Shown in pieces: positions 4,288 to 59,756 of a stretch of 64,000 bases of DNA (its first letter is position 1; every line of letters begins with the position of its first letter). A program made the position numbers and the translations under genes. The stretch comes from Sphyrna mokarran (taxonomy: Eukaryota), in NCBI GenBank assembly GCA_024679065.1, contig JAGIQG010000012.1:47492001-47556000 (forward strand), given 5' to 3'. Below the pieces are notes generated by a model, which was not told the origin of the DNA, made no database searches, and was given only the letters and a program-made list of their open reading frames with translations.

Positions 4288-4581
4288 GCACATAGTGGTC
4301 AGTGCTGCTACTTCACAGCAGCAGGACTTGGTTTCGATTCCCGAATTGGGTCACTGTCTGTGTGGAATCTTCTCCCTGTGTCTATGTGGGGTTCTTTCAG
4401 ATGTGCCAATTTCCTCCCACAATCTGAAAAACTTGCTGGCTAAAGTGCGACGGCCACGCTAAATTCTCCCTCAGTGCACCCAAGCAGGTGCCAGAGTGTG
4501 GTGACTAAAGGATTTTCACTGTAATTTCATTGCATTGCTAATATAAACCTACTTGTGACACTAATAAAAAATAAACTTAAA
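4288..4581 (+). mobile_element. V-SINE (HE1-like), alternative-tail subfamily
   Basis: Same head, core and cctacttgtgacactaataaaa tail as 108-400. Sits inside an older GC-rich element (about 3630-4770). Confidence 0.85.
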
Positions 4582-7299: not shown

Positions 7300-7681
7300 A
7301 TCAAATGACAGGGGATCACACTCGTCTTGAGTTCCACAATATTGAAACCGGCATTGTGACAGAGAGACGATACATATCAAATGTCCCTTCAAATTTCATC
7401 GGCCATTTACAGAGCCTAATGTTCAATGGCATGCCTTACATTGATCTGTGCAAAACTGGTGATATTGACTACTGCGAGCTCAATGCTAGATTTGGTTTCA
7501 AAATTATTATTGCTGATCCTGTGACCTTCAAGACAAAATCCAGCTACGTTGCACTGTCCACGTTGCAAGCCTACACGTCCATGCACTTGTTCTTCCAATT
7601 CAAGACCACATCAGCTGATGGCCTGATACTCTTCAACAGTGGGGATGGCAATGACTTCATTGTGATTGAACTTGTTAAAGG
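7300..7681 (+). CDS. NRXN1: Neurexin-1-alpha internal exon (382 nt): LNS4 C-terminus and start of LNS5
   Basis: Acceptor tttccttcttattttAG ends at 7299; donor GG|GTATGG at 7682. Reads [128 protein letters not shown], close to recalled vertebrate NRXN1. Phase 1 start, phase 2 end. Confidence 0.96.
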
Positions 7682-8439: not shown

Positions 8440-8722
8440 CAGTACAGTGGTTAGCATTGCTGCCTCACAGCACCAGGGACCCAGGTTCAATTTCAGTTTT
8501 AGACAACTGTGTAGAGTTTGTGCATTAGCCTTGTGTCTGTGTGAGTTTCCTCAAGGTTCTCTGGTCTCCTTCAATTGTGCAGGTTAGGTGGATTAGATGT
8601 GGTAAATGTGTAGATTACAGAGATAGGTCAAAGGGGAGAGTTTGAGTCTGATGCTCTTTCGGAAAATTAGTCAATGGGCCGGATTACTTATTTCTGCGTT
8701 GTAGGAATTTTATGATTCTATT
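8440..8722 (+). mobile_element. HE1-like V-SINE with CR1-derived tail
   Basis: cagtggttagcattgctgcctcacagcaccagggacccaggttcaa...gtgcaggttaggtggatt...atgggccg...gtaggaattttatgattctat. Confidence 0.85.
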
Positions 8723-8905: not shown

Positions 8906-9096
8906 ATACTTACACTACGTATTCGATTTAGGTACTGGTCCTTCCCTCATTAAAGGCAACTCTGACAAACCACTGAATGACAATAAATGGCATAATGTGC
9001 TGATTTCAAGGGACACAAACAACTTGCACACTGTGAAGATCAACTCCAAGCTCATAACTCAAAATACAGTCGGAGCCAGAAATCTAGATCTGAAAG
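8906..9096 (+). CDS. NRXN1: Neurexin-1-alpha internal exon (191 nt), LNS5
   Basis: Not in the ORF track. Acceptor tttttgtttccacAG ends at 8905; donor G|GTAAAC at 9097. Reads (G)[63 protein letters not shown](G). Phases match both neighbouring exons. Confidence 0.96.
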
Positions 9097-11789: not shown

Positions 11790-14770
11790 TCACTAGATCG
11801 GAGACTGGCTTTGTCTTCGCAACTCTTCTTGGCATCCAGGCAGGTCCACCACCAAAATTCTGTGTCAGCCCAATGTCGGCCTGTTAAATGATCTGTCACC
11901 TTTCAGAGAGTCATGATGTTCTTTCTGAAAGGTTTGCCTAGTCTCCACTCTCCCCAACAACTTTGGGAACACCAAGTCTAAGCAGGTACAAAGTGCCGAT
12001 CTATTAGCAGGTTAGAAGGCATTACCCTGTGATGCTGTGCAGTATAGTGTTGCAGGACAACAAAGAACTTGCCGATCACAATGGCAACAGCCAAATGAAC
12101 CTATTCTTTATGGAAGCCTTGAACATCTGCATAGCTTTTAGTCCACTAGTCCAGATGAGGCAGGATGATAGGCTGACTTAACAAGATGAATGCCATTAGG
12201 CTTGACAAAAGTCTGAAATTCATTTGCTATGAATGCCATTCCTTTGTCCAATATCAACACTTCAGGAAGACTAGATTGTAAGAAATGCCTCAGTTTTTAA
12301 ATTGTAATGTCCCTGTAGAGGATTGCATGAGCTGAATATCCAGCCACTTAGAATGGACATCTTCTAAGATACAGCAAAATCTACATGGAACAATAGTATC
12401 TGATAGCCCAGCCCTTTTCAACGGTGCATGTTCATTGGTGGCAGTAACAGTTGCTGCATCTGACAACTTCCACATTGCCCAACAATTTGTTCAATGTCTT
12501 TTCTGTGCCAGGCCATCAAACATAATTTCTGGCCAGGATGGATATCATGTAACTCTTGGTACAGGAGTTGTTGGCTCAGGGTGGTACAATGACATGGGTC
12601 CCGCAATATAATACTCCATCTTCACAGGTTTATCTCATCCCTGCAATGCAAATACGACTTCATTTGCCACATGTTGAAGTGCCACCCTGTCAGTTCCAGT
12701 TTCTTGACCTTTGGCAACAACAGGTCCCTATGAGTCCACGACTTAATGTGGGCTTCTAAAACAGGCAAGATATCCAGAAAATACAGAACCAATACTATCT
12801 CCTGCGAGAATTGGAGGTGACAGTGTGGTCTGTGGTAGAGGAAGATGGTTCAATTTATCCACATTTGAAATCTGTGTTGCTGGATGGTTTAGCGATATGC
12901 TGTCAGCAACAAAGCCAATCTCTGCATCCTAACTGAGACAATAAGTGGCTCTGGCTTATCCTCTTGGAACAGGCCTAGCAATGGCTTATGGTCTGACACA
13001 AAGGTGAAATATCGGACATAAATGTATTGGTGAAATGTTTTCACCGTGTAACTATTAGGCTTTCTTTGTTGATTTGTGAGTACTTTTTTTCAGCTTCTTA
13101 TAAAGTCCTTGAAGCAAATGTAATTGGCATTTCCACCTAATCTTCCATTCTATGGGATAGAACTGCTCCAACTCTACATAGCTAGACATCACAAGAAAAT
13201 ATTCATGGCTTGTTCGTCAGAATGTGTGATCAATGATGATGACTGTGATGCTTGTTTGGTTTTTACAAAAGCTTCGTTTTGCATGTCTCCCCAGTTCCAA
13301 TGCTAATACTTCTTAAAAAGCTGATGTAGGGATTTCCGAATTGTTGATTTGTACAGCAGGAATCTTCTATAGTAATTGACCGTTCACAGAAACATAGAAA
13401 TTAGAAACAAAAATAGGCAAGTTCAGCCCTTTGAACCTTTTCAGACATTCAGTCAGATGATGGCTGATCTCTCCCTGGTCTCAAATCCACCTCCCAACCT
13501 GTTCCCCAAATCCCTCTTTCCCTTTTTTATTAGAGATATGTTTAACTCCCTCTTGAAACCGTTCAATGAGTCAGACTCCACCATGCTTTAGGGCAGTGAG
13601 TTCCACAAATTCAGCACCCTCCATGAGAAGTAGTTCCTCCACATCTTGGTTTTAAATCTACCACTTTGCAACTTATAGCTGTGGTTCTTCCAGATTGCCC
13701 TATAAGAGAAAATATTTGGTCTACATTTACTTCATCAATCCCTTTTAAAATTTTATATACCTCGATCAAATCCCCTCTCATCTTTCTAAACTCCAGCAAG
13801 TACAAGCCCAAACTGTTTAATCTCTCCTCTTAAATCAATCCCTTAATCCCCAGAATCAATCTGGTGAACCTCCTCTGAACTGCCTCCAATGCCACCACAT
13901 CCTTCCTCAAATAAGGAGACCAACACCTTATACAATTGAAACAACACTTCTCTACTTTTATAGTCCAGTCCTTTTTGCAAGAAATATCAGCATGCCATTT
14001 ATCTTTTTTTATTATGAGCTGCATACTGACTTTTTACGATTAATGAACATGGACATCGAGATCCCTCTGCCCAGACACATTTTGAATCTGAATCTGCTTT
14101 CCATTTACGTAATAATTTGCCTTTCTATTATTTTCTGCCAAAATTGATAACCTCACGCTTACCACATTAAACTTTCTCTGACAAATTTTGGTCCATTCTC
14201 CTAGCCTATCTACTATATTTATCTGTAGAATCTTTATATATCTTCTTCATTGCCTGCTTTCCCATCTATTTTCATATCATATTCAAATTTTGCTATGTTA
14301 CACTCTCTCTGCTTGCAGATTATTTATATAGATTGAAAATAATCTATAGATAGGAAAGACTTCAGCTCTGTCATATTCCTTGGCCCTGTCACTCATTTAA
14401 CCTTTCACCGTATCTTTGAGGTGCTCCTTTGCATCCACTTTGAATCTGAAGTATGAAACTCTTCAGTTTGGAAAATATATTTCTCCCAATTCAACCATAT
14501 GCTGGCTTCCTTAAACCTCTTATGGACATCTTCCAGGTTTGCAGCATATTTTTCAGGCGAAGTACTTGTAATTAGGACATCATCCAAGTATACCGCCACT
14601 TTTAGATATTCCCTGGAACGTGCTCTCCATAGTGCATTAAAGAACGGCTCAGGCTGATAAGCCACTGGAGATGATTTGGTGAAAACCATTGACTTGTGCA
14701 CTATCAATATTGCAATGTCTCATGATAAAGATTCAAGTTACTACTGTAAGGTTATGTACAAGTCAGGTAA
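11790..14770 (-). mobile_element. Decayed Gypsy/Ty3 pol relic (RT, RNase H, integrase), split by a CR1 insertion
   Basis: Minus-strand motifs: VAVYLDDVLIT (RT, about 14590), PRNMTELKSFL, VNYYRRFL, an RNase H-like DHKPL region (about 12990), and integrase zinc-finger remnant ELHDIHPG...KDIEQIVGQCGSCQ (about 12500). Many stops and frameshifts. Confidence 0.85.
13385..14345 (-). mobile_element. CR1 LINE 3' fragment nested in the Gypsy relic
   Basis: ORF 13830-14024 (WSPYLRKDVVALEAVQRRFTRLILGIKGL) and ORF 13611-13811 (GLYLLEFRKMRGDLIEVYKILKGID). The 3' end acatagaaattagaa is at about 13390. Confidence 0.9.
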
Positions 14771-15884: not shown

Positions 15885-16058
15885 GAGACTTGTATATTGG
15901 AGGAATTGCCAAAGACATGTACAAAACATTACCAAAGCTGGTGGCATCAAGGGAGGGATTTCAAGGCTGTTTGGCTTCAGTAGACCTGAATGGACGACTT
16001 CCAGATCTAATTTCTGATGCTTTGTACTGCAATGGGCAGATTGAGCGGGATTGTGAAG
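15885..16058 (+). CDS. NRXN1: Neurexin-1-alpha internal exon (174 nt), LNS5 C-terminus
   Basis: Acceptor ttttctctaatccatAG ends at 15884; donor G|GTATCC at 16059. Reads (G)[62 protein letters not shown](Y/F)CNGQIER is NRXN1-like; as recalled, NRXN2 and NRXN3 have DALHR. Confidence 0.96.
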
Positions 16059-24100: not shown

Positions 24101-25181
24101 ATGAAGTATTGAAGTGGAATCAACTTCGGTACCAAACTTCTAGCAGAAAAAGGATTTTCTTTTCATCAGCATTCAGGATGCGAAGAAGCAGTCAAAATTC
24201 TTCTTGGAAGTCTATATTAGGATGAGGATAGACTTATTTTAGGAATAAAGAAATCATTAGACTGAGGCACTGTTGTGATATTAACTGGAAACTATAAAGT
24301 TGCAGATGCTTACAGCCTCCCATTTCGGTGAAAGGATCAGGAAGTGAAATCTGTATGAGAAGTTGTGCAAATGTAATGTAGAATGTCTTAAATCTGCTCC
24401 ACTTTATGTTCCATTAATCCTAGTGTATTCAGTATATGCTGCTTGAAAGGACTGAGAGGCAGATACAATAGTAACATTCAAACAGTTTCTGGAAATTTAC
24501 GTATGTGAAAATGAAAAGACATTGCACAAACACAGTTGGCTGAATGGCCTTGTTCCAAGTTATATTATTGTATAATGTATCTGATAACTTAACTTAAAAA
24601 GCTAAAACAGCAAGGCCTCAATCTTATGATATCCCCTGAACTAAACAAAGTGAGAACAGTAAAAGTGGACCAGGATCACAGAAGGGTGATCAATGGAAAA
24701 AACAACACTTCTTTCATTTCAAATGTATATTTTCAGTAGTCAGGTGCATTGTGTCATGTTGTTCAGGTTTCTAGTGATCTATTTTTGATGGGGTATTCAT
24801 TTTGTTTTCAGGCTGCACAGGTATTGACAAAGTTCAGAGAGCATTTTAAGTATATCAGTGCATTTTGTTTCCTACCGCATCATTCTGACTTGGAACTTTA
24901 TCTCAATGACACAGAGTCAAATCTTGAAACTCTCTCCATACACCACATGGTCTACATCACTTCAAAAGGTGGTAGAGATGAGTGACAAATTTTGGGGTGC
25001 CAGCAACTCTCTCAGCCCAATAATACAAACAAAAATGATAAAAGATTTCAATATTTGAATAAGTGCTTCAGAAGAAGTTATTTAATGTTCATATTGGTCA
25101 TTATCCCAGCAAGCTGTTGTTCTCAGACCCAGTAAAAATGTCAGGATTCAAATGCTTTTTGTAACTTGAGTAAAGTGAACT

Positions 25182-25834
25182 TTTGTTTCCTATATATCAA
25201 ACTCTAACTACCTGAATTGAATTGAACAATAAAATGCTCATCTGGACTGTATCATACATTTTTTATGATCAGGAAAATTCTGAGTAGCAGAAGATTGACA
25301 TTCTTAAGCTCACTTTATTCTGGATCACTTTTTTCTTCTGTTTTAAGCTTGCGCTATCTTAACAAAGTGCCTGTAAAAGATGCCTAAACAGGTACAAATA
25401 TTCAAGATTAAATCTAACTTTATCCAAAGTGCTTAGTTATTAAAGTCAAGATGATTGTTCAAAATTACTCTCCTTCAGTAACTGGCTGCACCTGGTAGCA
25501 GAATAGCCAATTGGAATATTCTGAAAAAAACCTTTTTTTTTCCAGTTTCTGTTGGATTAGTCTATTGGTTGCATAATTATTTATTTAGTAGCTTCTTGAA
25601 ATGTGTTGACATCTTTCTAATCAGCTACAAAACTGCAGCTGGAAGTATTCCTCAAGGTTTGAGTCAAATGCCACCTTTGTTTCCTATATACCAAACTCTA
25701 ACTATCTGAATTGAATTGAACAATATAATGCTCCTCTAGACTGTATCGTACATTTTTTATGATGCAGGGAATCCTGAGTAGCAGAAGATTGACATTCTTA
25801 AGCTCACTTTGTTCTGGATCACTTTTTTACTGTT
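25182..25834 (+). repeat. Local direct duplication of about 155 bp (25182-25342 and 25676-25834)
   Basis: tttgtttcctatata(t/c)caaactctaacta(c/t)ctgaattgaattgaacaat...ctgagtagcagaagattgacattcttaagctcacttt(a/g)ttctggatcactttttt occurs twice, about 495 bp apart, with scattered substitutions. Confidence 0.95.
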
Positions 25835-33360: not shown

Positions 33361-33456
33361 GCAGCATGTTTGCACTAAATTATTTCTGATGTTTGCTAAC
33401 ATGCCACTAATGCTTACTAACCTTTTACATATTTTGCTTTTATTTTGCTGGCAAAG
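33361..33456 (+). promoter_or_regulatory. Splicing-regulatory region upstream of the SS6 microexon
   Basis: No AG dinucleotide from 33365 to 33454. ACTAA/CTAAC motifs at 33374, 33396, 33406 and 33415 (TACTAAC). TGC about 10 nt before the 3' splice site. GCATG at 33364. Confidence 0.7.
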
Positions 33457-33483
33457 TTGCATTGATGAAAGCTGACTTGCAAG
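33457..33483 (+). CDS. NRXN1: 27-nt alternative microexon, neurexin splice site 6 (VALMKADLQ), between LNS5 and EGF-C
   Basis: ttttgctggcaaAG|TT GCA TTG ATG AAA GCT GAC TTG CAA G|GTAGAT. Phase 1/1 and frame-preserving. With the upstream G it gives VALMKADLQ, the peptide recalled for mammalian Nrxn1 SS6. TACTAAC branch point at 33415-33421. Confidence 0.9.
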
Positions 33484-33890
33484 GTAGATAGTTGTGTGTT
33501 TGTACAAAACAAGACTGAAATCTATGTCTGTGCAATACTTATACAAACAGCACATATCTGCTTTGGAACTCGATTGCATTCATGTCAAAATTTCAGAATC
33601 AGATCAATATTTTTAAGAAGTATTGCCTATATGGGACTTTCAGTCTTGAATGTTTCTATATCAGTTATTTTAGTATATCGAGTACATTTGTTTTGCATTC
33701 TTCTTTGGATTCTGGTTTCCACTAGTAACTGTTTTAGAAATGTAAAGTTATTTTATTCATTCTGACATCCAACCTAACCATGTCCCTTTCTATGTCCAAT
33801 TATCAGTTGACAGAATGCATGCAAAACTTATTAATATAAGACTAATGATGTGCTTAGGCCAAAATGCATGTTTTGTCTGTTCTAACTTAG

Positions 33891-34010
33891 GGCCAAGTAC
33901 AACCTGCCAAGAGGATTCTTGTGGAAACCAAGGTGTCTGTCTACAGCAGTGGGATGGCTTCAGTTGTGATTGCAGTATGACTTCCTATACTGGAACCTTG
34001 TGTAATGACC
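33891..34010 (+). CDS. NRXN1: Neurexin-1-alpha internal exon (120 nt), EGF-like domain C
   Basis: Acceptor ttttgtctgttctaacttAG ends at 33890; donor C|GTAAGT at 34011. Reads (G)[39 protein letters not shown](P), with six EGF cysteines. Confidence 0.97.
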
Positions 34011-58923: not shown

Positions 58924-59756
58924 GGGTCCTATTTTAACATTTTAATTCTAAGTGCTGGGCACACTTGAAACTGGGAGTGGTTTAGACCCGACGTTTAGAC
59001 CCGACGTTTAGACCCGACGTTTAGACCCGACGTTTAGACCCGACGTTTAGACCCGACGTTTAGACCCGACGTTTAGACCCATTCTTAGATGCTCCCATGT
59101 GCACTCTGCCTGAAAAAAAATCAACAATTCTAAATTGGGCTGCAGAAGCCTGTGGGCAAGGCTTTGTGTCCAAAACCCTGTAGCTCCGATCGTTGCCTCC
59201 ATACAGAAAAAAAGAATTTAAGAATGCGGTTCCCTTGCCACATCGCTCCTAGGCTGGATAATGCCTCCACCGGCCCCCATAGACATTGCCCCATTCCTAC
59301 AATATTACTGATCCCATTACCTCCCCCAGCCCACTCAGGCCAATTGCAGGCCCCAACACCCCTCTTCCCTCCCACACCAATGTCAGACAGAGTAGCAATG
59401 GACTCCCCCGCCCATCTCAGGCAGAGTGACAATGGATGCCCCCACTGATCTCAAGCAGAGAGCTGTCGAACACTTGGCACTTGCCTCTTCACTAAATGGA
59501 GGGCCCAAATCAGACTTTAGTTGAGTACACCAAAACTGGATGGGCAACTATGGCGATAAAGGAGGAAGTGCCGGTAAGATTGGGCATTAAGTCAATATAA
59601 ATGCATGCAAATTGCCTTGATCGCAGTCATTTTTGGGCCTTGGTAAAGGGGAAACTGGCACGATGGCAGATGCGGATTGCGCTACTCACTTCACACCAGA
59701 CTTTGCCAAGTTATTGTGCCTGGAAACAGGCAGAACTTAATGGTAAAATTGGGCCT
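58924..59756. mobile_element. Non-autonomous TIR DNA transposon (PIF/Harbinger-like), same family as 5323-6423 in opposite orientation
   Basis: 17-bp TIRs GGGTCCTATTTTAACAT and ATGGTAAAATTGGGCCT, with TTT on both sides (3-bp TSD). Confidence 0.8.
58981..59080 (+). repeat. Perfect minisatellite (TTTAGACCCGACG) x 7.7
   Basis: Seven exact 13-mers plus TTTAGACCC, with no mismatches. Confidence 0.98.

Follow-up and report, generated by a model that had tools for sequence, protein, structure and literature searches.

The neurexin-1 SS6 microexon of a shark, a probable cassette exon

The question raised by this locus is whether 27 nucleotides lying inside a long neurexin intron of the shark Sphyrna mokarran form an exon, and whether that exon is the counterpart of the mammalian alternative splice segment SS6 (AS6). 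The window that we analysed is 64,000 nt of genomic sequence (contig JAGIQG010000012.1, positions 47,492,001 to 47,556,000 of the forward strand), and all coordinates below count from its first nucleotide. Our preferred reading, to which we assign a probability of about 0.92, is that the segment is the shark orthologue of NRXN1 SS6 and likely a cassette exon, included in a minority of neural NRXN1-alpha transcripts, in which it would lengthen a hinge in the protein and shift its ligand preference as in mouse.

The host gene and the anatomy of the 27-nt exon

A splice-site check and tblastn identified four constitutive neurexin-alpha exons on the plus strand of the window. These exons, the microexon and the two intronic regions discussed below are as follows.

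7300..7681, plus strand: constitutive exon, end of LNS4 and start of LNS5 of NRXN1-alpha; AG/GT ends, 95-97% to shark and skate nrxn1a by tblastn, Pfam Laminin_G_2
8906..9096, plus strand: constitutive exon, middle of LNS5 of NRXN1-alpha; AG/GT ends, tblastn, Pfam Laminin_G_2
15885..16058, plus strand: constitutive exon, end of LNS5, phase-1 donor; 57/57 residues identical to Stegostoma, Chiloscyllium and Scyliorhinus nrxn1a, with matches to the neurexin-1-alpha PDB entries 3r05, 3qcw, 3poy and 3asi
33365..33456, plus strand: extended 3' splice-site region of the microexon, putative function; 90-nt AG-free zone, branch-point-like motifs, UGC
33457..33483, plus strand: predicted SS6/AS6 microexon, 27 nt, phase 1/1, encoding VALMKADLQ between LNS5 and EGF-C; AG/GT ends, in-frame join, match to the mouse and zebrafish exons by eye
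33484..33890, plus strand: downstream intron, 407 nt; two TGCATG motifs, first 9 nt as in zebrafish (by eye)
33891..34010, plus strand: constitutive EGF-C (EGF3) exon; 40/40 residues identical to Stegostoma and Scyliorhinus nrxn1a, tblastn

The four constitutive exons are identical to elasmobranch NRXN1 at 280-284 of 288 residues (284 for Scyliorhinus nrxn1a, 281 for zebra shark), to Callorhinchus NRXN1 at 259, to tetrapod NRXN1 at 247-249 (turtle 248, dunnart 249) and to NRXN2 or NRXN3 at 214-231. In a tree, the window falls among elasmobranch NRXN1 sequences beside those of catsharks, with moderate support and in an unstarred clade. Together, the exon identities and the tree placement identify the host as a shark and the gene as NRXN1; on sequence grounds it is NRXN1-alpha. 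Searches by tblastn with two models each of the alpha and beta forms detected no further neurexin exon between 34011 and 64000, and the next exon probably lies past the end of the window.

Several repetitive elements were also noted in the window. A broken LTR-retrotransposon relic occupies 12293-14719 on the minus strand, in the intron upstream of the exon that ends LNS5, with domain matches to RVT_1 (14408-14719), RT_RNaseH (12892-13089) and Integrase_H2C2 (12421-12621, weak). A local duplication of 170 nt (91% identity) pairs 25166-25334 with 25659-25828, a dispersed repeat of ~260 nt has copies at 127-392, 2212-2472, 4346-4581 and 8443-8558 (71-74%), and at 58980-59080 a 13-nt unit is repeated perfectly in tandem, 7.8 times.

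The 27-nt segment is directly preceded by AG and directly followed by GT, and 407 nt separate it from the EGF-C exon. Because the LNS5 exon at 15885-16058 ends after the first base of a codon, translation of the insert gives VALMKADLQ, and the frame is restored at the EGF-C exon; the translated join of all five exons is 297 residues long with no stop. The splice ends and the open join thus bear out the initial annotation, which had proposed an AG/GT-bounded, phase-1 exon at this distance. Might an AG..GT 27-mer with these properties arise by chance in a long intron? The 17.8-kb intron contains 61 such 27-mers, 31 of which are open in phase 1. However, the microexon, at the right junction and in the right phase, matches the skate RefSeq insert at 9/9 residues, whereas the next best of the 31 open candidates matches at 3/9, and across all six frames of the window the remaining 9-mers reach at most 5/9. 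The match to annotated inserts, combined with identity to the mouse exon at 27/27 nt, refutes a chance origin, to which we give a negligible probability.

The length of the segment falls within the range of 3-27 nt, in multiples of three, that defines SRRM3/4-type neural microexons. Its host (NRXN1-alpha), its position between LNS5 and EGF-C, the preserved frame and the encoded VALMKADLQ are those of SS6/AS6, and the host gene, junction, phase and peptide all uphold the earlier assignment to NRXN1 SS6. The peptide, which the initial annotation had given as that of Nrxn1, agrees with the mouse entry in supplement file 12 of PMC12626420. We conclude that the segment is a real exon, orthologous to the known SS6 (AS6) microexon of NRXN1.

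The insert in other species and the age of the exon

Gene models from other species contain the same insert. The counts for the elasmobranch nrxn1a cluster come from 15 listed members of 294, of which 13 are alpha forms, and the insert is present in 7 of these 13 alpha models. In the skate Amblyraja it is identical at 9/9 residues (RefSeq XP_032881149.1 and XP_032881152.1); in the zebra shark Stegostoma (XP_048392679.1) and the bamboo shark Chiloscyllium (XP_072436962.1) it reads VAMMKADLQ, which is 8/9 identical, and this change (L3M) is probably a carpet-shark substitution. RefSeq models with and without the insert both exist for Stegostoma and Amblyraja; RefSeq X-isoforms are computed models rather than curated transcripts. 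Among the best 120 matches to a search with the LNS5-ending exon, seven carry the insert (one zebra shark model with VAMMKADLQ, and four turtle and two dunnart models with VALMKADLQ), and pigeon and emu models also have VALMKADLQ (9/9). A search of 50% clusters gave the insert in 1 of 150 matches, which were mostly single-exon read-throughs. Matches to an insert-free query spanning the junction were left out of the absence counts, since such a query is biased against inserts.

The insert is found in none of the seven Callorhinchus alpha models listed. An unrelated 9-mer at the SS6 junction of one Callorhinchus UniRef model was dismissed on its sequence and is a probable modelling artefact. These models bear on two expectations of the initial annotation. 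The exon was thought to be hidden from automated annotation, but RefSeq carries it in Amblyraja, Stegostoma and Chiloscyllium, and the seven Callorhinchus models are where it is missing. It was also described as apparently unchanged in a cartilaginous fish, which holds for Sphyrna and for skate but not for the zebra and bamboo sharks.

A homologous sequence could persist in the shark as a silent relic that is rarely or never spliced in. The listed chimaera models would be in keeping with this, as would human single-cell long reads, which, according to the accessible part of PMC12642523, show SS6 to be largely skipped in the cell types of adult cortex and cerebellum; adult glia exclude it, and its use in fetal pyramidal cells varies. 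Against a relic, the exon matches mouse at 27/27 nt (by eye) and its intact splice signals are shared with zebrafish, and three other elasmobranchs have insert-plus models, two of them with a lineage-specific residue indicating that the insert was read from their own genomes. We therefore consider a silent relic very improbable, and favour a spliced orthologue of NRXN1 SS6.

How old is this exon? Since shark, skate, zebrafish and tetrapods all have it in NRXN1, the jawed-vertebrate ancestor already had it. To this extent the dating in the initial annotation stands, but the shark copy supplies no new date: teleost nrxn3a has a homologous insert (in 2 of 15 listed models of one cluster), which makes the exon older than the NRXN1/NRXN3 duplication. 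In elasmobranch nrxn3, the insert occurs in 0 of the 15 models listed from a cluster of 70, which may reflect loss, low inclusion or missing annotation; this absence is weak evidence, given that teleost nrxn3a models show the insert in only 2/15. As a control, NRXN2 matches to a bird query contained 0/120 SS6-like inserts (118 with none, one without the junction, one with an unrelated 10-mer). Three hagfish models, as annotated, contain no 9-residue insert (one has none, two have a single Ala).

Two variants at this junction were seen in passing. The single extra Ala of the two hagfish neurexin models recurs in a minnow nrxn2 model, and perhaps reflects a tandem acceptor; a goldfish nrxn3a model has an extended SS6 insert of 14 residues, which suggests an upstream alternative acceptor.

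A more far-reaching interpretation is that sharks and rays kept NRXN1 SS6 letter for letter and lost NRXN3 SS6, that NRXN1 SS6 may likewise be gone from chimaeras, and that the NRXN1 exon is held in place by an RNA-level splicing code. Its basis is annotation (inserts in the listed models of elasmobranch nrxn3, 0/15; of Callorhinchus nrxn1 alpha, 0/7; of elasmobranch nrxn1a, 7/13), and we regard this interpretation as doubtful. If it were true, cartilaginous fishes would constitute a natural knockout series for the hinge switch.

Constraint and splice signals

The microexon is identical to the mouse exon at 27/27 nt (by eye, for the exon only; supplement file 12 of PMC12626420). Compared with zebrafish, it is identical at 26/27 nt, whereas 103 nt of flanking zebrafish cDNA match at 74/103 (by eye; Fisher p=0.004), and third codon positions are identical at 9/9 in the microexon and 11/35 in the flanks (by eye; Fisher p=0.0002). 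At the protein level, the insert is identical to that of turtle at 9/9 and the flanking exons at 248/288 (p=0.27); for zebra shark, the values are 8/9 and 281/288. The earlier suggestion of stronger constraint on the microexon than on its neighbours is thus supported by the DNA comparison but not by the protein comparison. Carpet sharks show L3M, zebrafish has M4L and teleost nrxn3a has GFT; the residue changes seen all lie within positions 2-4 or at position 9. Mouse-zebrafish conserved microexons are stated to exceed their host proteins in conservation in the portion of Calhoun et al. available to us (PMC12626420); extra constraint of this kind is already known for neural microexons in general.

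The AG-free zone before the acceptor of the microexon is 90 nt long, compared with 28-65 nt for the other four exons, and zones of at least 90 nt precede only 5 of 1135 intronic AGs. Branch-point-like motifs lie at -68, -58, -47 and -37 (TACTAAC occupies 33415-33421, and the nearest YTRAY is at -37), and UGC is found at -22 and -11 from the acceptor. The 200 nt upstream contain 10 copies of TGC, compared with 3.4 expected. Two copies of ACTAAY, which we take to be a QKI/SF1-type motif, are also present upstream (a post hoc observation). Downstream, the 407-nt intron contains two copies of TGCATG, at 33816 and 33865 (Poisson p=0.018, post hoc and uncorrected), presumably an RBFOX-type motif. 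The zebrafish locus has TACTAAC, the acceptor-proximal UGC and the first nine intronic donor nucleotides in common with the shark (by eye). Together, these comparisons suggest an exon that, with its splice signals, is nearly invariant at the DNA level across jawed vertebrates.

SRRM4-regulated neural microexons are described, in the excerpted text of PMC12871342, as having a long stretch between branch point and acceptor together with UGC. The shark acceptor fits the SRRM3/4-type layout of UGC near the acceptor, a long pyrimidine-rich AG-free stretch and a distal branch point. We propose that SRRM3/4 probably drives inclusion through the AG-free stretch with UGC that lies downstream of the distal branch point, and that the downstream RBFOX sites possibly aid it. 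The 12 supplement files of PMC12626424 contain no rows for nrxn1a, nrxn1b or nrxn3a, and no SRRM3/4 dependence of the exon is recorded there.

It could be that the exon is spliced but kept mainly for its RNA sequence, that is, for splicing signals in and around it, with the peptide serving as a generic spacer. The complete conservation of third codon positions relative to zebrafish speaks for this; the restriction of amino-acid changes to positions 2-4 or 9 also agrees with it, as does a zebrafish deletion line that has no named phenotype in the available text of PMC12626420. Against it, even the paralogues NRXN1 and NRXN3 have KADL in common, and inclusion alters ligand adhesion in mouse, although the accessible part of that study (PMC4489214) does not separate the effect of length from that of sequence. 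We consider this explanation possible but on balance unlikely, and it qualifies the preferred reading, in which a functional hinge insert is spliced into some NRXN1-alpha transcripts, rather than excluding it.

Relation to the known SS6 microexon

Reviews assign the sites SS1-SS6 to Nrxn1 and Nrxn3, and SS1-SS5 to Nrxn2 (PMC12665717, from the accessible text). The 27-nt nrxn1a/Nrxn1 exon is one of 95 mouse-zebrafish conserved microexons in the available portion of Calhoun et al. (PMC12626420), and its zebrafish orthologue is scored "Yes" both for UC repeats and for UGC in the supplement. RT-PCR put inclusion of the zebrafish exon at 0.18 at 12 hpf, rising to 0.42 by 24 hpf (PMC12626420, file 1). 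The exon was deleted in zebrafish by CRISPR, and nrxn1a is not among the lines named with phenotypes in the main text, as far as it was accessible (PMC12626420); for this reason, the in-vivo effect of the deletion may be small. In mouse brain, the AS6+ peptide was found by mass spectrometry, and AS6 was positioned at a hinge; adhesion to LRRTM2 was ~threefold higher without AS6, and adhesion to neuroligin-3 slightly higher with it (Schreiner et al. 2015, PMC4489214, available sections). Liu 2018, as quoted in an excerpt of a review (PMC13212319), found that SS6 relieves restricted L5-L6 flexibility.

What would the exon do in the shark? Inclusion in a minority of neural NRXN1-alpha transcripts is likely. 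By analogy with mouse, the nine added residues would give a longer hinge between LNS5 and EGF-C and shift ligand preference: the SS6+ shark protein would be more flexible at the LNS5-LNS6 hinge, and would adhere less strongly to LRRTM2 and slightly more strongly to neuroligin-3.

The SS6 peptide is reportedly called conserved among animals in a 2015 abstract by Serova. Our literature search, which did not reach the primary SS6 papers, found no publication on SS6 in any shark. PMC3933685 treats AS4 and has no mention of SS6 or AS6, and the accessible portions of two bioRxiv preprints, one of them covering elephant shark (10.64898/2026.09.05.749416), do not mention this exon. The shark exon is nonetheless a member of a named and already annotated splice event, and as such is already known. 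It carries little weight as a discovery, because the mammalian site has protein, binding and structural data, zebrafish has an orthologue and a deletion line, and RefSeq has entries from three cartilaginous fishes. We regard the shark copy as a tidy data point, with the outcome that microexon conservation predicts.

The closest known system is SS6 of mouse and human NRXN1-alpha (AS6; exon 17 in the accessible text of PMC12642523), which is in the same gene, at the same LNS5/EGF-C junction and of the same length, phase and peptide; the flanking exons differ (249/288 residues identical to dunnart). Zebrafish nrxn1a differs from the shark in having Leu in place of Met at insert position 4, and a longer stretch between branch point and acceptor (~52 nt, compared with 37 nt in the shark, by eye). 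Elasmobranch nrxn1a isoforms have the insert at the same place, with the same peptide in skate and VAMMKADLQ in Stegostoma and Chiloscyllium. The NRXN3 SS6 insert is paralogous, and in mouse its regulation is described as independent of NRXN1 AS6 (PMC4489214, available sections). It lies at the same junction and has KADL in common with NRXN1, whereas the first half differs, as in the VGFTKADLK of zebrafish nrxn3a.
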